Assembly: GCA_003551675.1 (NCBI GenBank)
Contig: PUNG01000152.1
Coordinates: 5,377-69,376, forward strand
DNA length: 64,000 nt
Reading direction: 5' to 3'
Source: Thermoplasmata archaeon
GTDB taxonomy: Archaea; Thermoplasmatota; Thermoplasmata; Halarchaeoplasmatales; Halarchaeoplasmataceae
Shown piece by piece: positions 32,083 to 63,258 of the stretch. Numbering within the stretch: the first letter of the stretch is position 1; every line of letters starts with the position of its first letter. A model generated the notes under the pieces. It saw only the letters and a list, made by a program, of their open reading frames with translations. It did not search any database and was not told the origin of the DNA. The position numbers and the translations under genes are program-made.

Positions 32083-32180
32083 TGGACCAGCGGGGATTTG
32101 AACCCCGGGCCTCCACCATTCTAGCGGAGATGTTTTCTCCCGTTGCCAAGGTGGCGATCTTCCAACTGATCTACTGGCCC
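32083..32180 (-). tRNA. tRNA-Ala (anticodon GGC) with ~25-nt intron in the anticodon loop; CCA not encoded
   Basis: The reverse complement folds as a tRNA. The acceptor GGGCCAG/CTGGTCC includes a G3:U70 wobble, the Ala identity element. The D-stem is GATC/GATC and the anticodon stem CCACC/GGTGG with loop TTGGCA-intron-. The T-arm is CGGGG TTCAAAT CCCCG and the discriminator is A. Confidence 0.75.
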
Positions 32181-53328: not shown

Positions 53329-53479
53329 GCCGAGGTAGCTAAGCCTGGACCAAGGCGCCGGCCTTGAGAGCCGCCGATCAGAGGAAAGTCTTCACGGGCT
53401 TTCCTCGAGCCGGGATTCCCGGCGATCAAGCAAGCCGGTGGCGCGCTGCGCCTCAGGAGTTCGAATCTCCTCCTCGGCG
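53329..53479 (+). tRNA. tRNA-Ser (anticodon UGA), type II, with 64-nt intron at canonical 37/38 position
   Basis: The acceptor GCCGAGG/CCTCGGC is a perfect 7-bp helix and the discriminator is G. The D-arm is GCU...GGC and the anticodon stem CCGGC/GCCGG with loop CUUGAG-intron-A. A 16-nt variable-arm hairpin reads UGGCGCGCUGCGCCUC. The T-arm is AGGAG UUCGAAU CUCCU. The intron spans 53369..53432 and has its own hairpins. Confidence 0.7.
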
Positions 53480-56368: not shown

Positions 56369-57613
56369 ATGTTGATCGACATACCTTACGCAGATGACAA
56401 GATAACCGTGGATGTGGAAGAGCAAAAAGTCCATGCGGTCCTACATCCCAACGAGGTACAGAAAAAAGAAGAGAAAGAAGTGATACTCGAAGCACTAAAG
56501 TATCCCATAGACAAACCCAAATTTTCAGATTTCATCGAAGACGGCACTTTGATGATCGTCAATGATGCAACTAGACCGACTCCAACTTCGTTGGTACTGG
56601 AAACGATATCAGAATATATAGAAGAGCACGAGGTAGAATTCATAGTTGCTACAGGTTCCCATCGGAAGCCCACCGGAGAAGAACTCCGATGGATATTCGG
56701 TGATATCTATCAGAGCGTCAAAGAAAATATACACATCCACGATGCAAAAAACGACGATACGGTGGATTACGGAACTACCAAGAGAGGAACTCCAGTCAGA
56801 TTCAACAAACTCGCTGCGGAGGCCGAAAAGGTCTTTGCCGTGAACACTGTAGAACCCCACTACTTTGCCGGATTCACGGGAGGAAGAAAATCATTTTTAC
56901 CGGGGATAGCCTCCTACGAAACCATAACAGAAAATCATTATCATTCTCTCAAAAAAGATGCAAAAGCGTTGAAACTCAAAGGCAATCCGATCCATGAGGA
57001 TATGATGGAGGCTTACAGAAAATTTGATGCTGAAGTTTACGGACTTAATATAACGTTGGATAAAGAGGGAAGAGTTTACTCCGCAAGCTCGGGAAATTTA
57101 GAAAGAGTTTTCCTTGAAGAAGTCAGAACAGCCAAAAGGATATTCACAGCAAGTATAGAAAATAGATCTGAAGTTGTCGTGACCGCCGCATATCCCATGG
57201 ACCTAGACCTTTACCAGAGCCACAAAGCCGTAGAATTCGCAAAGTCGGCTCTGAAGAAAGGAGGGATCATGATACTTGTATCGCACTGTTCCGACGGGAT
57301 AGGGCCTAAAAATTTCTATGAATTGATGAGCTCTGTTGATTCATTAGAAGGAATTTTAGAAAGGGTAAAAGAGGAGTACCGATTAGGCTATCAAAAGGCT
57401 GTAAAATTAGAATATCTATGCTCAAACGATTCTCTTTGGGCGGTAACTGGTTTAAACGACCGAGTTCTCAAATCGATATCCATTGAGCCAAAAGAGTCGC
57501 TTCAAAAAGCCATCGACGAGGCTCTTCTTAAGACTGGAGGAAAAGTTACATTTATTCCTGAAGGTGGTACCACGGTGCCCATATTTAAAGAAGAGTCAGT
57601 TTATCTAGAGTAG
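56369..57613 (+). CDS. LarA-like (nickel-pincer lactate racemase family, DUF2088) protein
   Basis: IVATGSHRKPT (G[ST]HR motif) and FAGFTGGRKSFLPGIA (conserved Lys); 414 aa. Confidence 0.6.
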   Translation: MLIDIPYADDKITVDVEEQKVHAVLHPNEVQKKEEKEVILEALKYPIDKPKFSDFIEDGTLMIVNDATRPTPTSLVLETISEYIEEHEVEFIVATGSHRKPTGEELRWIFGDIYQSVKENIHIHDAKNDDTVDYGTTKRGTPVRFNKLAAEAEKVFAVNTVEPHYFAGFTGGRKSFLPGIASYETITENHYHSLKKDAKALKLKGNPIHEDMMEAYRKFDAEVYGLNITLDKEGRVYSASSGNLERVFLEEVRTAKRIFTASIENRSEVVVTAAYPMDLDLYQSHKAVEFAKSALKKGGIMILVSHCSDGIGPKNFYELMSSVDSLEGILERVKEEYRLGYQKAVKLEYLCSNDSLWAVTGLNDRVLKSISIEPKESLQKAIDEALLKTGGKVTFIPEGGTTVPIFKEESVYLE

Positions 57614-58057
57614 GTGGGGAGGAACATCCGCTTCTAGAGGGTCTTCTTGGCTCCAGTCGGGTCGGTATCGAAGGATCATACCTGTCTCGTCTTCCTGGAT
57701 TTCGAAGCTGATCCTGAACGTATCGCTCTCTCCACCGGCGATCTTGCTTGGAAACCCTATTTCATCGTGGTAAGATCTGCTGTATCTTTTATCTGTCTCG
57801 AGTTCGAAATGCCGAGCTACGGGATAAAAATCCGATCCTACATCTAGGTTTTCCATTCTCACCTGGATGTACAAAAATACATGATCATCTTTGGGAGCAC
57901 GGTTCCTTGCATCGTACTCTTTTATCTCCGCATCCTGCACCGTCATATCTATCTCTGGGTCGAGAGAAACTTCATCATCTAAGCATCCTGTGAGCGCAAC
58001 TACACTAAATAGGAGTATGACAGAAACAAAGATCGCAGAGACATCTACTACTCTCAT
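57605..58057 (-). CDS. Predicted lipoprotein / secreted protein
   Basis: Signal peptide with a lipobox-like LTGC (MRVVDVSAIFVSVILLFSVVALTGC). Confidence 0.45.
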   Translation of the reverse strand: MRVVDVSAIFVSVILLFSVVALTGCLDDEVSLDPEIDMTVQDAEIKEYDARNRAPKDDHVFLYIQVRMENLDVGSDFYPVARHFELETDKRYSRSYHDEIGFPSKIAGGESDTFRISFEIQEDETGMILRYRPDWSQEDPLEADVPPHLL

Positions 58058-58198
58058 GGCGCACACGTCTTGGAGGGTATAGAAAGTGAAAGGATATGAA
58101 ATTTTCTCATGATATGTGAAATGTGTTGGTCCGTATACCAAAACACTGGGTATTCAAAACATATATATAGACGTCTATAAATCATAAAACGTGATATC

Positions 58199-58570
58199 TT
58201 GTCATGGTCTGACAGAATCGAGTTTGATCTATCTCAGAGGTTGAAAACCAAGACAGAAGCTGGTGATGGAGATGAGGTCAAAACTCCACGAAAGAAAAAC
58301 AAAAAGAGAGCCGCTTTAGCATCTCTATTCTTTCCAGGTTTAGGTCAACTCTATAACAGACATTGGGGGAAAGGCATCCTTTTTTTCGCCATAGGTGTGG
58401 TATGTGCGGTATACCTTTTTTACTATATTACCGGCTATCTGATTTTCACTCCGGTGATGATCATATCGCTTTTCTGGGCGTACAATGTTTACGATGCGTT
58501 TTCAAAGGCTGAAGGGGACCATGAAGACGAAGGTAGTATGATGCTCAGGAAGAGTAAGAGACGAAGCTAA
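58199..58570 (+). CDS. Small TM2-like membrane protein
   Basis: SLFFPGLGQLYNRHWGKGILFFAIG is followed by a second TM. The N-terminus is basic. Confidence 0.4.
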   Translation: MSWSDRIEFDLSQRLKTKTEAGDGDEVKTPRKKNKKRAALASLFFPGLGQLYNRHWGKGILFFAIGVVCAVYLFYYITGYLIFTPVMIISLFWAYNVYDAFSKAEGDHEDEGSMMLRKSKRRS

Positions 58571-58599
58571 AGGTCAAAAAAATAAGGGTCAAAAGACAT

Positions 58600-59466
58600 T
58601 TATTTCTTTTTGATATCTTTCAAACCCTTTTTGTTTTTTACAGTTGCGGATTCGTGGACCTTAAGGTTTTTTGCCTTGACCGTCTGGATCTTACATCCGG
58701 GGCCTATGACAACATCACTTCCCATAACATTTTCAGCTTTCGTATTCTCCAGGTAGATGTCGTTCCCTGTGATGCTTTCCACATCAAGGGAGCCGGTCTT
58801 TCTAAAACCGAAGGAGAAGAATCCCGAACCACCGCTTTCCACGACGACATCTCCGCCTTCTATCTTTTTTATCTTTGACTTATCAGAGAGTTTGAGGGCA
58901 ATGTCGCCTCTCAAGACATTTTTTATGTGGACAGCACCACTGGCGTTCATGGTTTCACACACCACATCACCATCGACTTTAAAAGAACCAGAAGCTTCTA
59001 TCACATCCACTTTTACATCTTTTTCAAACTTCGACGCGCCGCTGACATCAAGTTTTTCTCCCTCTGTTTTCCCCAGCACTTTTAGAGCTCCGCTCGAACT
59101 CAATTTTCCTATGTATACGTTGCCGTTTACTTTAGTGGCTCCGGAGATTTTTGCATCATCGGCTATAAGGTCACCGCTTATACCGGATGCACCGGCGGCT
59201 CTAAAGATCTCACAGTTGCAGCTGTCGATCCTGGTGGCTCCCGTGATCTTGACCTTTTTTGTTTTTTCATCCGTTTTTGTTTCTTTTTCTGAAACATCTT
59301 CTATCTCTTCGTCTATAATCTCTTCTTCTATTTCGTCTTCCGTGTTTTCTTCGCTCTTCTTGTACCTGGAAACGATCTCGTTGTAAAGCTCCTGGGATAT
59401 CTCTCCATCAGCAAGCCTTTGGTCCAATTTTTTTAACATCTTTTCGTTTTCATCCATTTTTACCAC
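58600..59466 (-). CDS. Bactofilin-like (polymer-forming beta-helical) protein with N-terminal SHOCT-like domain
   Basis: The central domain has repeated short beta-strand units with regularly spaced G/A/S/V (GATRIDSCNCEIFRAAGASGISGDLIADDAKISGATKVNGNVYIGKLSSSGALKVLG...), typical of bactofilin DUF583. The N-terminal LADGEISQELYNEIVSRY is SHOCT-like. Confidence 0.55.
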   Translation of the reverse strand: MVKMDENEKMLKKLDQRLADGEISQELYNEIVSRYKKSEENTEDEIEEEIIDEEIEDVSEKETKTDEKTKKVKITGATRIDSCNCEIFRAAGASGISGDLIADDAKISGATKVNGNVYIGKLSSSGALKVLGKTEGEKLDVSGASKFEKDVKVDVIEASGSFKVDGDVVCETMNASGAVHIKNVLRGDIALKLSDKSKIKKIEGGDVVVESGGSGFFSFGFRKTGSLDVESITGNDIYLENTKAENVMGSDVVIGPGCKIQTVKAKNLKVHESATVKNKKGLKDIKKK

Positions 59467-59600
59467 CTGTTTACATTGTACATGATCACGAGATTATATA
59501 TACTTATCTTGAATATATTATTAGATAGGCTGAACTTTGAAGTAGTTATCATCAACTTTTTAGTTGAAAAACCTAAATATCTCCTTTCTTATGGGTATTC

Positions 59601-60032
59601 ATGAAAGATTTCACCGAAGAGATGATAGGCATATTTTCATCTAAGACAAGGTGCGAGATCTTGGATATGTTAGGGGAGGGCTACGATCATCCTGAGGATC
59701 TAGCCGAAGAGTTAGAACTTACAAGACAGGCCGTGGACAAACACCTGATATTACTACACGATCGGGGTATGGTGGAGAGGAACGCCATATTCCCTCCCGA
59801 AGGAAGACCTAGGATCATCTATGAGATAACTAAAACAGGGAAAAGATTGATGAATACATTGGACAAACTCGCCGATAGATACAAGGCAACGATGTTGGAA
59901 AGAGCGGAGAACGAGATCGAGCAGTTGGACATGAAGCTCGCCGCGGGTGACCTCTCGGAAAAGATATATAAGAAAAAGGTAGAAGAGGTCAAAAAAAGGT
60001 GGAATTATTCCGCATTGAAAGAACAAGAGTGA
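59601..60032 (+). CDS. Winged-helix (ArsR/TrmB-like) transcriptional regulator with C-terminal coiled coil
   Basis: SKTRCEILDMLGEGYDHPEDLAEELELTRQAVDKHLILLHDRGMVER. Confidence 0.55.
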   Translation: MKDFTEEMIGIFSSKTRCEILDMLGEGYDHPEDLAEELELTRQAVDKHLILLHDRGMVERNAIFPPEGRPRIIYEITKTGKRLMNTLDKLADRYKATMLERAENEIEQLDMKLAAGDLSEKIYKKKVEEVKKRWNYSALKEQE

Positions 60033-60307
60033 AAAGCGGGATTTCTTACCGTTGTTATCATGATTTAGTAGGCCAGGGGGACTTTTACAACTTTTGAGTT
60101 GACGTTGTTCAACCTCGTTTTGGACATATCCATTATTATTTTCAAGAATAATATAAATACCTCCCTCTCCTTATCATTATTAGTGAGAAAAATGATGAAA
60201 GGAAAAAGATTCAAGGTAAGAAGGGCCGGATATCCGAGTTACGAACACGCTAACCTGTTGTCGGTGTTGGTCGGCAACAAATAAAGCTCCGGTCAAAAAC
60301 CCTTTTT

Positions 60308-61768
60308 TTACTTTTCTTTTCCTCTTGCTTTTGTGAATTTACAACCACCAACTTTTATGGAAGGTATAAATGTGGGTGTATCCACCGCCCACCACTTCAC
60401 CTGTTTAGTATCTTTTCCTATGGCTTGCATGTTCTCGCACATCTTTAAAAGGTTCCCTTTCAATCTGAGTCCTTTTATAGGTTTTTTGATCTCTCCGTTT
60501 TCTATTAAGAACATTGCGTCCCTGGGAACCGTTGAAAACTCTCCTTCGCTCATGTTAGTGAACCTGGTATACCAGTTCGAAGTTAGATATATGGTGGGTC
60601 TAGTGGAGGTGGATATGATCTCGTCGAGACTGTACGAGCCGGGGTCGAAACGATAATTTGAAGGCGCGGGTAGAAGGATCCTTGGGTTCTCCTCGGTACC
60701 CGTCATCCCCATCTGCCCTAAGATCGAATTCGAAGAAGTTTTTGCCCTTCTCCAGAATTTCAGTTTTATCGTGTTGATGAAGCTCCAAAATTTAGCCGTA
60801 GACGTATTGTGTATCAATCCTGTGAACTCTCCGTCTTTGAATAGAGTTGTTTTCTGGGAGGGGGTTCCTTCGTCGTCGAAAGGTCTGCTGTTCAGTCCTT
60901 CTTCTACCAAAGAATCGTCTTTTACGGTCAGTTCTTCAGGGCCGACCTTCTTTTTCATCTTGCCTCTGAGACAGCTCATACCCGCGATCATCATGATAGG
61001 GTTAGTGCCGCTCAGCAGGTTACCAAATAGGTTGGCGCCAACAGTGGGGCTCATTATCATATCGTAGGTACCTGGTTTACCCTGTTCGGCCCCTGTACTC
61101 CGCCTGGACAATCGGCCGGCTTTTCGACCCGCATCTTCGAACTTTTTCTCTATGTTGGAAAGTTTTCTAGTGACTACCAACCCCTGACCACTGCTCTCTT
61201 CGTCGTGAAATGCACGTATGGTGCCCCTGCAGAAAGAGGACTCGTACTCGCCTCCGTTTCCGTAGCCGGTGAGAAGACCGGTTTTGCTGATACCTGAATG
61301 CAGCACGCCTGCGGAATTTTTGGCACCGACCTCGTCTGCTGAGTCTATCATCTTCTTTACAAGTTTTGGACCTTTTTTATGGAACTCTTCCATCCCTTCG
61401 TCGTATAGCTTTATGGAAGGGTAAGAACTGTGGGGCTCCTCATCCATACCCCAATATAGTTTACTTTTAGGTAGTTGGTCTAAAAACCTCACCTGTTTTG
61501 GTACTCTTTTTTTGACCTTTTTTTCATCGGGATCGTGGATTGTCAAGGTATCGATCTTTCTGGTGAGAGAAAAACGTGGTTTTTTGGAGATGAACACATC
61601 CAAATAATGATTATCCCATCCTTTATTCACGTCGATGGATGAATTTGAAAATCTTATCTGGTATTTTTTCTCTTCAACCAGTTTAGCTATGACTTCATCC
61701 GCTCCGGATCTCAATGCTGTTTCTACAGCGGTCTTCAATATTTCCTCATCAAATCTTTTTCCCATCAT
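60308..61768 (-). CDS. pmbA: TldE/PmbA-family metallopeptidase subunit
   Basis: Peptidase U62 fold that lacks the HExxxH motif and is paired with tldD. The start is assumed at the internal Met (MMGKRF). Confidence 0.7.
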   Translation of the reverse strand: MMGKRFDEEILKTAVETALRSGADEVIAKLVEEKKYQIRFSNSSIDVNKGWDNHYLDVFISKKPRFSLTRKIDTLTIHDPDEKKVKKRVPKQVRFLDQLPKSKLYWGMDEEPHSSYPSIKLYDEGMEEFHKKGPKLVKKMIDSADEVGAKNSAGVLHSGISKTGLLTGYGNGGEYESSFCRGTIRAFHDEESSGQGLVVTRKLSNIEKKFEDAGRKAGRLSRRSTGAEQGKPGTYDMIMSPTVGANLFGNLLSGTNPIMMIAGMSCLRGKMKKKVGPEELTVKDDSLVEEGLNSRPFDDEGTPSQKTTLFKDGEFTGLIHNTSTAKFWSFINTIKLKFWRRAKTSSNSILGQMGMTGTEENPRILLPAPSNYRFDPGSYSLDEIISTSTRPTIYLTSNWYTRFTNMSEGEFSTVPRDAMFLIENGEIKKPIKGLRLKGNLLKMCENMQAIGKDTKQVKWWAVDTPTFIPSIKVGGCKFTKARGKEK

Positions 61769-61773
61769 GTGGA

Positions 61774-63258
61774 TCACTCTATCCTCACGTTTCTCATCCT
61801 GAGGTAAGGACCTCCGGTCGACACACTCACAGGCTGCATGGGATCGCTCTTCCCACAAAAGTTCATACGGTACTCGTAATCGTTGGAAACGGCATCTATG
61901 CTTTCTAGAAGCGCCGGTGTGGTCATTTCCAGGGCCGGGCGCTTGATCATCTTGTTTGTGATCCTTCCGTTCTCTATCAGATAGGATTCGAGTCCAACGT
62001 ACTTACTATGATACCTCCTATCGTCTATGTTCCATTCGGTGAAACTCTCTATGAGGACGCCTTTTTTCACGTCTTCTACGAGTTCCTCTTTACTCTGATC
62101 CTTTGGTTCAAAAAAAGTGTTGGACATCCTGGGTATAGGTTCTCTGCTGAATCCCGCCGAACGTGCGGCTCCGTTAGAGGAAGTCCCAAAACAAGAGGCG
62201 AACTCACGATTCAAAAGGAGATCGTTCAGCTGTCCATCTTTGATCAGATAGCGCGCCCTCGCTTCAACACATTCTTCATCGTAGAGATAAAAACCGGGGC
62301 TTCCCTTGAGGGTGGGATCATCGACCACTGAAACCACTTCAGAGCCTATATCTACACCGGTATCATCCAGATCGATTTTTTTCGCGTCATTATTTTCCTT
62401 GATACCCAAAAGTTCCCTGTAAAATGATCCACCGGCCTGCGCCTTTTCACGACCCATTATCCTGTCACTTTCGCTGGGATGTCCTACGTTCTCGTGGGCC
62501 ATGATCCCTGAAACTTCCGGACCGACGATCACATCCAATGGTTTACGGAAATTCACTTTTTTAGCCTCTTCAGCGGACCGTACCAGTTTTTTGCTTTCCC
62601 GGAGTATCACATCTCGTACGTTACCTTCCTTCAGCCATTCCCATCCTGAACTTCCTCCTAGCCCGAACATCCTCTGCTCTTTATCGTTTTTTGTCTCGGC
62701 GTTCATAACACAGAATATGGATATGAATGATTCGTCCGAGTGTACCTTGGAGTCTTCTGAGGTCACGATGTACTTTTTAGATGAGTTTGTATGAAAGAAG
62801 AGGATCCTGTTCTTTATCTTGTTCCGGATAGAAAATTTTTTTGAACCGCATTTTTTAATATCATCGTCTAATTTTTTGACGAACTCCTGTTTCTCCTTTT
62901 TTGAAATATCTTTGAAAGGTATTTTGGTGGGCACGCTCCAATTCTTCTTGACGCTCTTTTCTTCAGAGAATTCTATGGGCTCTTTTCTTTCGCTCAACTG
63001 CGCCATCTTAGATATAGATTGAACCCTTTCTTCTACCTGTTCTTTTTCCAAACTATCCACGGAGCCGAATCCGAGACAGCCGTCCATGAGGACTCTTATC
63101 CCGAGACCCTTTGTGGGTTTTTTTTGTATGCTCAGAAATTCTCCATTTCTTGAAAAGTAATTTTCGTTGATAGAATCTATGAAGCGAGCCTCTACGTAAT
63201 CCGCTCCGTTATTCATCCCATACTCTACTGTATGCTCCGCTAGAGTCTTTCCGTCCAT
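61774..63258 (-). CDS. tldD: TldD-family metallopeptidase
   Basis: HENVGH (HExxxH) and GxC...; 494 aa. Confidence 0.8.
   Translation of the reverse strand: MDGKTLAEHTVEYGMNNGADYVEARFIDSINENYFSRNGEFLSIQKKPTKGLGIRVLMDGCLGFGSVDSLEKEQVEERVQSISKMAQLSERKEPIEFSEEKSVKKNWSVPTKIPFKDISKKEKQEFVKKLDDDIKKCGSKKFSIRNKIKNRILFFHTNSSKKYIVTSEDSKVHSDESFISIFCVMNAETKNDKEQRMFGLGGSSGWEWLKEGNVRDVILRESKKLVRSAEEAKKVNFRKPLDVIVGPEVSGIMAHENVGHPSESDRIMGREKAQAGGSFYRELLGIKENNDAKKIDLDDTGVDIGSEVVSVVDDPTLKGSPGFYLYDEECVEARARYLIKDGQLNDLLLNREFASCFGTSSNGAARSAGFSREPIPRMSNTFFEPKDQSKEELVEDVKKGVLIESFTEWNIDDRRYHSKYVGLESYLIENGRITNKMIKRPALEMTTPALLESIDAVSNDYEYRMNFCGKSDPMQPVSVSTGGPYLRMRNVRIE

Follow-up and report, generated by a model that had tools for sequence, protein, structure and literature searches.

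A long bactofilin-like protein and its divergent winged-helix regulator carry matching SHOCT-like hairpins in a Thermoplasmatota archaeon

The DNA analysed here, a window of 64 kb from a Thermoplasmatota archaeon, contains near its end three adjacent open reading frames. The coordinates and orientations given for them in an initial annotation were all confirmed, and the length of the bactofilin frame was corrected from 288 to 285 aa. The locus comprises:

58199..58570, plus strand: gene for a small DUF5683 membrane protein, 123 aa
58600..59457, minus strand: bactofilin-like gene, 285 aa (long, assigned to the BacE/BacF type)
59458..59600, no strand: divergent promoter region, 143 bp, common to the regulator and bactofilin genes
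59601..60032, plus strand: winged-helix regulator gene, 143 aa, ArsR/HVO_A0261-type

The bactofilin frame as called mechanically starts from an upstream GTG at 59466 (58600–59466, minus strand, 288 aa). The true start is almost certainly the ATG at 59457, since all orthologues begin with MDE or MSE and an identical database protein (P0001) has 285 aa. Both this gene and the regulator gene are real, with homologues down to E 1e-100 and E 1e-74, respectively. Within the bactofilin gene the following parts were distinguished:

59347..59451, minus strand: SHOCT-like helix-turn-helix hairpin, residues 3–37 of the 285-aa protein, LKKLDQRLADGEISQELYNEIVSRY
59269..59346, minus strand: acidic linker, disordered, residues 38–63
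58624..59262, minus strand: predicted right-handed beta-helix of about 12 windings, 17-residue period, SGAxKVxGxV repeats
58792..58833, minus strand: flexible aromatic/basic loop GGSGFFSFGFRKTG jutting out of the beta-helix

In the AF2 model the N-terminus forms two helices (residues 6–19 and 25–40, pLDDT about 95), in agreement with the helix pair that had been proposed there. The acidic linker, also proposed beforehand, has 14 D/E among its 26 residues and pLDDT values < 50; its length and sequence vary in the alignment of bactofilin orthologues. Regular beta-strand repeats had been noted over about 150 aa; they are indeed present, and the predicted beta-helix extends over about 213 aa (residues 69–281) in about 12 uninterrupted windings without internal helices. 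The repeats are real and not due to chance: the autocorrelation peaked at a lag of 17 residues (identity 0.149) and again at 34 (0.125), against a background of about 0.07, and invariant glycines are spaced 16–17 residues apart across 29 homologues. A conserved C-terminal block, IxGxDIYLENTxA...IGPGCKI...VHES, follows the repeats. The aromatic/basic loop, in which residues 215–219 have pLDDT < 50, keeps its position and its F/L-rich character, together with R, K and G, in close, distant and bacterial relatives, and could perhaps be a membrane-binding loop. Neither a signal peptide nor a hydrophobic transmembrane (TM) segment was evident in the 285-aa sequence. Canonical bactofilins possess an N-terminal membrane-targeting sequence (MTS) motif; nothing similar was visible in the N-terminus MDENEKMLKK.

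Membership of the bactofilin superfamily is based on transitive and profile-level homology together with the predicted fold. An HMM search against PF04519 (Bactofilin) had been suggested as a check, and its outcome depended on what was searched. Single-sequence scans of the 288-aa ORF against NCBIfam and Pfam yielded no bactofilin match, and the window protein alone did not match PF04519 even at E ≤ 1; this is a sensitivity limit of single sequences for a divergent member. Four orthologues (P0014, P0017, P0020 and P0021; 47–52% identical to the query, E 1e-66 to 1e-84) reached 28.3–32.4 bits for PF04519, the gathering cut-off being 27.9, and matches were obtained with 24 of the 29 aligned family members (best E 3.6e-12). 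The family profile detected BacA (2n3d, E 1.3e-4) and the Thermus bactofilin (6ria, E 0.017). A Foldseek search of the predicted structure against the PDB returned nothing significant; superposition of Caulobacter BacA on the predicted fold gave 2.5 Å over 99 of 103 residues. The proposed bactofilin beta-helix is thus borne out by profile, orthologues and model, where a lack of both profile match and beta-helix had been named as the finding that would speak against it. The beta-helix is the likely polymerising core, the 285-aa protein would be expected to polymerise, and a role in the membrane or in cell shape may be considered.

Like the canonical bactofilins (BacA, 2n3d; TtBac, 6ria), the window protein is predicted to be a right-handed single-stranded beta-helix with about 17–18 residues per winding. 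It differs from them by having about 12 instead of about 6 windings, by the internal aromatic/basic loop, and by its N-terminus: the canonical core lies between disordered tails, whereas the window protein starts with a folded hairpin, followed by the acidic linker, and has no short membrane-targeting tail. With the halofilins HalA and HalB of Haloferax volcanii it shares the archaeal origin and the superfamily. HalA consists of two six-winding subdomains arranged head-to-head and joined by an alpha-helical membrane-targeting hairpin, and HalB spans the membrane with five TM segments and has its bactofilin domain on the extracellular side (PMC11459167). In contrast, the window protein appears as a single unbroken beta-helix that lacks a TM segment as well as an internal helical hairpin; by its AF2 secondary structure and sequence it does not belong to the halofilins.

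Two bacterial relatives, P0031 (E 5.8e-25 to the query; locus L007) and P0045 from Paenibacillus radicis (E 3.7e-13; locus L051), are situated in DUF4004-bactofilin-bactofilin operons, i.e., operons of the bacR-bacE-bacF (yhbDEF) type. On these grounds the window protein is assigned to the BacE/BacF-type long bactofilins, by way of the operon homologues rather than by direct comparison with P39132 and P39133 of B. subtilis. Features in common with Bacillus subtilis BacE/BacF (YhbE/YhbF) are the long beta-helix of about 12–13 windings and the same conserved C-terminal block; orthologues P0014–P0022 possess one additional 17-residue winding compared to the window protein, which brings them to about 13. 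Archaeal members of this group are already known, and bacterial and archaeal BacEF-like proteins with 13 windings were reported as a separate fourth cluster (PMC11459167).

In Bacillus, BacR binds to BacE/BacF, and DNA binding by BacR is thereby blocked (PMC13649987). The archaeal locus resembles the BacR (YhbD, DUF4004) system in that a small HTH regulator gene adjoins the bactofilin gene. The differences are considerable: the archaeal regulator is a winged helix (wHTH) of the ArsR/HVO_A0261 type, unrelated to DUF4004, of which no match was found in the neighbouring regulator; its gene is divergent, whereas that of BacR is the first of the operon; and archaeal loci usually contain one bactofilin gene, not two. 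The N-terminal SHOCT-like hairpin and acidic linker are present only in the archaeal bactofilin and absent from the bacterial proteins in the alignment, and a matching hairpin occurs on the archaeal regulator, unlike in the BacR system. Since no DUF4004 regulator is located upstream in an operon, the archaeal pair stands outside the BacR system, though it may work like BacR.

The 143-aa regulator scored 29.7 bits for HTH_5 (cut-off 22) and 33.8 bits for HVO_A0261_N, just below the cut-off of 35, in Pfam searches. Its profile matched structures of ArsR, CmtR, Phr, QsrR and Lrs14-like proteins, with E values of about 1e-5 for the ArsR structures 2oqg and 2jsc; the structure 2p4w was also among the best matches. 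The DNA-binding domain is therefore of the HTH_5 type, as in ArsR/SmtB and Phr/Lrs14 regulators, from which the protein differs by its C-terminal SHOCT-like hairpin and by the position of its gene next to SHOCT-bactofilin genes in the loci surveyed. The family is narrow and was found only in Thermoplasmata/Thermoplasmatota where the source names the organism; homologue comparison showed the regulator to be more conserved than the bactofilin.

A divergent HTH regulator linked to the bactofilin had been noticed previously, and the survey made it the conserved partner. The wHTH gene adjoins the bactofilin gene divergently in 27 of 27 related species genomes and at all three distant loci inspected (L056, L058 and L060), and it is adjacent in 66 of 68 metagenomic loci. 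The clade of these loci shares about 35% identity with the query of the scan, and at the two remaining loci the bactofilin is tandemly duplicated. The query for scanning the metagenomic collection was a six-member subgroup of distant hairpin-bactofilin fusions, and the 80 metagenomic loci are not independent, since they stem mostly from one soil clade. All surveyed genomes are MAGs, and among them no cultured or genetically tractable carrier of the pair was identified. Two other candidates for a conserved partner were discarded, namely a downstream ABC transporter, which was seen at L058 and L060 (0 of 58 loci), and DUF4352 (adjacent in only 5 of 27 genomes).

The region between the two genes contains the following elements:

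59552..59568, no strand: palindrome TTCAAC-N6-GTTGA(T), putative operator of a wHTH dimer
59573..59580, plus strand: TATA-like box of the wHTH gene, CTAAATAT
59494..59502, minus strand: TATA-like box of the bactofilin gene, TATATATAA, clade consensus TATAAATA, kept in the 25-locus alignment

This promoter region is strongly conserved in 25 orthologous loci, the proteins being only 45–65% identical. The spacing between the genes is 137–160 bp in the soda-lake clade and 139–154 bp in distant lineages. The palindrome abuts the BRE/TATA element of the wHTH promoter and precedes the TATA box of the bactofilin gene by about 50 bp. Its strict form, TTCAAC-N6-GTTGAA, is found in 21 of the 25 orthologous regions, the four other copies deviating slightly; within the 64-kb window it is the only exact match, and palindromes of the same 6-N6-6 geometry occur at L058 and L056. 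Binding of the regulator to this site as its operator would be consistent with these observations. A second palindrome-like site at 60086–60102 (one mismatch) is within chance expectation. The TATA-like box of the wHTH gene forms a conserved block of columns, TAT..TTAa, in the alignment of 25 loci; if the reading as an archaeal promoter is correct, its distance of about 25 nt from the ATG implies a leaderless mRNA. For the bactofilin gene, a TATA function of the conserved box on the minus strand is probable, and a GGTGG Shine-Dalgarno sequence is located at 59463–59467.

The second link between the two genes is found in their products:

59910..60002, plus strand: C-terminal hairpin of the regulator, residues about 104–134, EIEQLDMKLAAGDLSEKIYKKKVEEVKKRW

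The regulator hairpin and the bactofilin hairpin gave reciprocal HMM matches (E 2.4e-4 and 5.7e-5), which were unique among the 725 segments of the window, and were aligned by hhalign with E 7.1e-6 and a probability of 84%. These profile matches show the two to be homologous. Several motif residues of the regulator hairpin are invariant in 23 orthologues. In AF2 the C-terminus of the regulator is a helix-turn-helix with pLDDT 92–94; this model was made from a single sequence; its wHTH domain is of poor quality, and only the C-terminal hairpin can be used. The regulator tails of the distant clade contain the motif in 50 of 66 cases by HMM and in 66 of 66 by a permissive regular expression. It is present in the tails at L056 and L060 as well, and at L058 it is recognisable by eye only. 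The hairpin is thus kept on both partners across lineages in which the bactofilins are only about 30% identical. At L056/L108 the same hairpin is found at the N-terminus of a multi-TM protein, the product of a third, overlapping gene directly downstream, and in these archaea the hairpin was also found on an EMC3/DUF106 insertase (L037, L038) and on a surface-type protein.

The label "SHOCT-like" is the right one for this hairpin. With SHOCT (PF09851) it shares the two-helix hairpin of about 28 residues and the signature (L)xxLxxxGxI(S/T)xxE(Y/F). The HMM check of the proposed SHOCT-like N-terminus showed a match for the window bactofilin (17.1 bits, E 0.0048), which remained under the Pfam cut-off of 27. 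Matches were obtained with all 16 archaeal-clade members tested, each of them below cut-off (best 22.6 vs 27 bits), and one orthologue is named a SHOCT domain-containing protein by NCBI; together with the hairpin in the AF2 model these sub-threshold matches uphold the proposal. SHOCT is typically C-terminal, and so is the hairpin of the regulator, whereas that of the bactofilin is N-terminal; N-terminal examples of SHOCT have been reported (PMC3581485). In the literature library searched, there was no paper in which SHOCT and bactofilin are mentioned together.

The following model is proposed. In this haloalkaliphilic Thermoplasmatota archaeon, the bactofilin carries its SHOCT-like hairpin on a flexible acidic linker attached to the beta-helix core. 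The wHTH regulator would bind the TTCAAC-N6-GTTGAA palindrome as a dimer and, the palindrome being situated in the shared promoter, could thereby control its own gene and that of the bactofilin. The same hairpin on both proteins suggests that filament and regulator touch; should the hairpins of the two proteins dock together, the bactofilin polymer could capture or release the regulator. Such a feedback between filament and regulator would be analogous to the BacR-BacE/BacF partner switch of Bacillus and would have been built independently of it. The data show the fold, the membership of superfamily and subgroup, the pairing of the genes, the conservation of the palindrome and the homology of the hairpins; polymerisation, binding to the operator, docking of the hairpins and a role in the membrane or in cell shape are inferences. 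For the model as a whole, i.e., a long BacE/BacF-type bactofilin, a palindrome-bound divergent wHTH and a hairpin-docked partner switch, our judgement leans slightly to the positive side. The more general idea of the hairpin as a heterotypic docking module, which would tie the bactofilin polymer to a transcription factor as well as to the membrane protein of L056 and perhaps to DUF106/EMC3 (L037, L038), is offered only tentatively.

Many Thermoplasmatota have no cell wall. Archaeal bactofilins have, as far as we are aware, so far been studied only as the halofilins of Haloferax, while the long BacE/BacF-like form was noted in archaea and not examined. The locus described here represents a compact two-gene unit of Thermoplasmatota, consisting of a filament protein and its dedicated regulator, which is conserved very consistently. 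The matching hairpins lead to a cheaply testable hypothesis, namely that a cytoskeletal polymer reports its state to transcription, and they bear on the question whether the recently reported BacR-BacEF switch is a general principle which was reached twice with unrelated regulators. If the docking module is real, filament assembly or the state of the membrane would feed back on transcription, an archaeal counterpart of the BacR-BacE/BacF switch would have evolved independently, and a SHOCT-type domain would have its first assigned function, which has been sought since 2013. Without an interaction of the hairpins, what is left would be a bactofilin variant specific to the lineage, whose promoter is autoregulated; this is of value for annotation and no surprise.

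The pairing could also be purely transcriptional, brought about by the palindrome, with regulator and bactofilin proteins that never touch; the hairpin of the regulator would then be a dimerisation element, and that of the bactofilin would serve filament bundling or another partner. Terminal helices of ArsR-type regulators commonly serve just for dimerisation, C-terminal dimerisation helices are known from ArsR/Phr-type regulators, and 2p4w is among the best matches of the family. The hairpin is promiscuous, being carried by unrelated proteins of these lineages too, so that the two partners could make use of it independently, and the only published test for self-association of SHOCT was negative (PMC3581485). 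This explanation has to contend with the retention of the hairpin on both proteins at about 30% bactofilin identity, with the third adjacent hairpin-bearing gene in one lineage, and with the precedent of a physical switch between regulator and bactofilin in the homologous bacterial system (PMC13649987); we consider it somewhat unlikely, while contact of filament and regulator through their hairpins is the reading we prefer. Much less probable is the view that the beta-helix is a monomeric scaffold, an adhesin-like solenoid or a hexapeptide-repeat (LbH) enzyme instead of a cytoskeletal polymer. With LbH enzymes the alignment to the predicted fold reaches no better than about 11 Å rmsd, a sign of the wrong handedness; the repeats have a period of 17 and not 18 residues, the 285-aa protein has neither signal peptide nor TM segment, and the homology to PF04519 proteins and to proteins of BacE/BacF operons is significant. 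The LbH enzyme reading was dropped because of handedness and repeat period.

The initial annotation had combined the bactofilin, a TM2-like protein and the regulator into a membrane-tethered cytoskeletal module; it did not include the hairpin of the regulator, the BacE/BacF-type assignment or the promoter palindrome. The membrane protein gene is there as described, convergent to the bactofilin gene with a gap of 29 bp, but its PGLGQLYN-containing product belongs to DUF5683 (PF18935, 31.1 bits, cut-off 26.7) and not to TM2 (PF05154, 11.6 bits, E 0.33, cut-off 27.9). The genes are neighbours in the window and at L015, which would fit such a module; the co-occurrence with bactofilins that had been suggested for checking amounts to adjacency in one of 27 related species genomes, and at L008, where the gene order is otherwise the same, the DUF5683 gene is absent. 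An HMM search found no copy of the shared hairpin in the 123-aa protein. Adjacency in only 1 of 27 genomes places the DUF5683 protein outside the conserved system, as a lineage-specific neighbour. The module in this form is largely refuted by synteny and can hardly be maintained. Tethering to the membrane by some other partner is nevertheless plausible, since another membrane protein, which bears the hairpin, is encoded directly downstream in a distant lineage.

The three open reading frames around the bactofilin-like gene were confirmed where the initial annotation had placed them:

58199-58570 (+): DUF5683 (TM2-like) ORF, 123 aa, convergent, with a 29-bp gap to the bactofilin ORF
58600-59466 (-): bactofilin-like ORF, 288 aa as a mechanical ORF
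59601-60032 (+): winged-helix (wHTH) regulator ORF, 143 aa, divergent

To judge from the sequences, the start codon of the bactofilin-like gene is almost certainly the ATG at 59457, yielding 285 aa, since all orthologues begin with MDE or MSE and the identical database protein P0001 has 285 aa. In database comparison the window matched a contig of assembly GCA_019594035.1. The nearest relatives are MAGs of Thermoplasmata/Thermoplasmatota, some of which bear the names Ca. Natronoplasma or Ca. Saliniplasma.

The protein is a bactofilin-superfamily β-helix with a SHOCT-like N-terminus, as had been proposed. The Pfam scan of this protein alone gave no match to Bactofilin (PF04519), even at E ≤ 1, and yielded weak matches to Hexapep (E 0.0013) and, below threshold, SHOCT (E 0.0048, 17.1 bits); at the family level PF04519 was recovered. 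When scanned singly, 24 of 29 aligned family members matched PF04519 (best E 3.6e-12), orthologues of about 50% identity passed its gathering score of 27.9 bits (28.3–32.4 bits), and SHOCT was matched below threshold in all 16 archaeal-clade members. Searching 5.8 billion proteins gave 50 homologues, of which 23 were close (46–64% identity, ca. 285–300 aa) and kept the entire architecture, and about 27 were shorter (ca. 225–250 aa, 25–38% identity), lacked the N-terminal module and in several cases carried the names polymer-forming cytoskeletal protein or CcmA. Run against all PDB sequences, the family profile picked out BacA of Caulobacter (2n3d, E 1.3e-4) and the bactofilin of Thermus (6ria, E 0.017). 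An AlphaFold2 model based on a 29-sequence alignment (pLDDT 87, pTM 0.72) contained the expected β-helix:

residues 6-19 and 25-40: N-terminal helices
residues 41-65: disordered segment
residues 69-281: continuous β-helix, pLDDT > 95
residues 215-219: low-confidence loop

The repeat period of the β-helix is 17 residues (autocorrelation maxima at lags 17 and 34), with glycines at residues 76, 92, 109, 143, 160 and 177 invariant in the alignment of homologues. There are about 12 windings, seven of them clean SGAxKVxGxV, and one winding more in the orthologues P0014–P0022; D or E make up 14 of the 26 linker residues. The predicted fold is that of a long bactofilin of the BacE/BacF type, to which an acidic tether joins the hairpin, and the proposed identity of the protein stands, because bactofilin homology at the family level and a predicted β-helix were both obtained.

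A 13-winding BacEF-like cluster, bacterial and archaeal, has BacE/BacF and a protein of Methanobacterium as its representatives and is separate from canonical bactofilins, HalA and HalB (PMC11459167). The protein fits with this cluster; it matches neither HalA, in which a helical hairpin links two six-winding subdomains, nor HalB, which is a TM protein. Shorter bacterial relatives are located in DUF4004-bactofilin-bactofilin operons (L051 of Paenibacillus radicis, and L007), the same arrangement as Bacillus subtilis yhbDEF (bacR-bacE-bacF). Exhaustive searching with phmmer against 1.84 billion representatives gave 1343 relatives at E ≤ 1e-3, 618 at E ≤ 1e-10 and no more than 8 at E ≤ 1e-30, so that the protein's own clade is a small one in a sizeable long-bactofilin family. 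Hairpin, charged linker and long β-helix were also found in many distant representatives (27–41% identity); the single one that bears an organism name is again from Ca. Thermoplasmatota, and two are already labelled CcmA (bactofilin family) by JGI.

For the gene neighbourhood, one genome per GTDB species was scanned with the archaeal-clade alignment. Full-length relatives were present in 27 genomes, 26 of them Thermoplasmata/Thermoplasmatota MAGs and one labelled Aenigmatarchaeota, and in all 27 a divergent wHTH gene was directly upstream. A DUF4352 gene adjoined the bactofilin in five, and the DUF5683 gene in one (L015). The initial annotation had proposed that the latter, as a TM2-like protein, could belong to a membrane-tethered cytoskeletal module, and had suggested a check of co-occurrence. 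The 123-aa protein passed DUF5683 (31.1 vs 26.7 bits) and did not pass TM2 (only 11.6 bits); its gene was absent from L008 despite a gene order as in the window (CSD, TldD/PmbA twice, wHTH, bactofilin, DUF4352, LarA). From family assignment, adjacency counts and L008, this gene is a lineage-specific insertion outside any module, and the proposal of a membrane tether that involves it is not supported.

The pairing with the regulator reaches far outside the soda-lake clade. Three distant fusion bactofilins (L056, L058, L060; ca. 31–33% identical to the bactofilin of the window) each have a divergent HVO_A0261-type wHTH of 136–139 aa about 140–155 bp upstream. Of 80 metagenomic loci, mostly from one soil/sediment clade, 68 had sufficient upstream DNA, and 66 of these had the divergent regulator; in the other two a second SHOCT-bactofilin, in tandem, sits between regulator and bactofilin. 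The counts show that the divergent wHTH is a near-obligatory partner. The regulator is better conserved than the bactofilin: its family comprised 44 clusters, mostly of 142–150 aa and none with less than 56% identity to the regulator in the window, those with an organism name being all Thermoplasmata or Thermoplasmatota; a word-indexed search found no more distant homologues. Tandem duplications with the extra SHOCT-bactofilin between regulator and second copy were seen at L061:2696-3496 and L136:1916-3175, and recall the Firmicutes bacE/bacF pair.

Regulator and bactofilin share the hairpin. An HMM of the bactofilin N-terminus matched the regulator C-terminus (E 2.4e-4) and, among 725 six-frame segments of the window, nothing else besides the bactofilin itself (next best E 0.33); a broader hairpin HMM gave the same outcome, and the reciprocal search gave E 5.7e-5. 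Profile-profile alignment covered 34 columns and both helices (E 7.1e-6, probability 84%), with the motif LDxRLAxGE(I/L)SExxY ... EIKxR(Y/W), several residues of which are invariant in 23 regulator orthologues. The regulator C-terminal segment was predicted as helix-turn-helix (pLDDT 92–94) with no alignment needed. The motif persists in regulators of the distant clades: among the 66 of the soil clade, an HMM detected it in 50 and a permissive regex in all 66; the hairpins of L056 and L060 were detected by HMM, that of L058 by eye only. On the strength of these profile matches, the two hairpins are shown to be homologous.

The hairpin, a promiscuous module, is carried by other proteins of these archaea as well. 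In one distant lineage (L056:2925-3521 (+), also L108:4330-4935) a gene that overlaps the stop codon of the bactofilin gene codes for a multi-TM protein starting with the same hairpin (in L056, 198 aa, about four TM segments, N-terminus LLTQLDEWLANGDIDESTYHRLKDKY), so that regulator, filament protein and membrane protein alike carry it; among the 80 metagenomic loci the membrane protein is confined to this lineage. In related Thermoplasmata MAGs (L038:4013-4885 (+) and L037:3974-4882 (+)), directly after SecY, an EMC3/TMCO1-like insertase (DUF106, YidC-type; PF01956 80–85 bits) bears the same hairpin and a long acidic linker as an N-terminal fusion; the species-genome scan found no pattern-matching SHOCT-bactofilin in these MAGs. 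In L050 a surface-type protein carries the hairpin C-terminally. The hairpin peptide pattern also retrieved C-terminal SHOCT-type tails of unrelated proteins of ca. 300–370 aa in Chloroflexota MAGs (L039–L049), which therefore places the archaeal module near bona fide C-terminal SHOCT domains.

The region between the two genes is strongly conserved across 25 orthologous loci, although the encoded proteins are just 45–65% identical:

59458-59600: divergent intergenic region, 143 bp
59552-59568: palindrome TTCAAC-N6-GTTGAA, strict in 21 of 25 loci, the remaining 4 deviating slightly
59573-59580: TATA-like box of the regulator gene, ca. 25 nt from its ATG
59494-59502: TATAAATA box, oriented toward the bactofilin gene
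59463-59467: GGTG Shine-Dalgarno, oriented toward the bactofilin gene

The short distance of the TATA-like box suggests a leaderless regulator mRNA. The palindrome abuts the BRE of the regulator promoter, occurs exactly only once in the 64-kb window, and is a putative operator of a dimeric wHTH. Variants were present in L058 (ATCAAC-N6-GTTGAT) and L056 (TTTAAC-N6-GTTGAA), and another 6-N6-6 palindrome in the GC-rich soil clade. A one-mismatch copy, TACAACTTTTGAGTTGA, at 60086-60102 (+), on the 3' side of the regulator before the convergent PmbA/TldD gene, is probably a chance match without meaning, since 1.6 such matches are expected.

BacR (DUF4004) of Bacillus regulates yhbDEF, binds BacE/BacF, thereby loses DNA binding, and shuttles between membrane foci and nucleoid (PMC13649987). 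The archaeal regulator is unrelated to BacR, and any common logic would therefore be convergent. The long β-helix would polymerise, and a wHTH dimer would bind the palindrome and control both genes; on the Bacillus model, docking of the hairpins on each other could let the polymer sequester or stabilise the regulator. Against docking, ArsR-type regulators often use terminal helices merely for dimerising. The promiscuity of the hairpin likewise counts against it, as does the negative outcome of the sole published test of SHOCT self-association (PMC3581485).

BacEF-like proteins have been recorded in archaea before, and some relatives already carry a bactofilin annotation, so that the protein as such belongs to a known kind. 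The literature search turned up no account of a SHOCT-like N-terminal cassette in the BacEF-like group, of the invariant divergent wHTH partner with the same hairpin, or of the conserved operator-like palindrome; the bactofilin family is an ordinary one, and its regulatory twist is clean and testable.

A conserved loop, GGSGFFSFGFRKTG, at 58792-58833 (-), is predicted to be flexible and breaks into the β-helix; long bactofilins of archaea and bacteria alike have there an F/L-rich stretch with R/K/G on either side. From its conservation and predicted flexibility, this aromatic/basic loop may be a candidate for membrane contact or insertion, replacing the absent N-terminal targeting sequence; no account of it was found in the literature examined.

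Several other genes of the window deserve mention. A DUF4352 protein, 57605-58141 (-), has an N-terminal hydrophobic segment ending in a lipobox-like LTGC; it has 178 aa here vs 150 aa as annotated in the matching contigs L052/L053. At 60308-63258 (-) is a pair of TldD/PmbA metallopeptidase genes; the second gene, 516 aa from a TTG as a mechanical ORF vs 489 aa as called in L052, probably starts downstream of the TTG. Close to the bactofilin locus is a LarA-type lactate racemase homologue, 56369-57613 (+) (Lar_N 181 bits); L003:6786-8649 has instead Ni_insertion (PF01969) and AIRC (PF00731) family genes, which we take to be LarC-like and LarB-like, and a nickel-pincer cofactor gene set appears to travel near the bactofilin locus in some relatives. 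Two tRNA genes, 32083-32180 (-) and 53329-53479 (+), scored 55.7 and 37.5 bits with Rfam and were missed by ARAGORN; with 98 and 151 nt, both presumably contain introns, in keeping with an archaeal origin.
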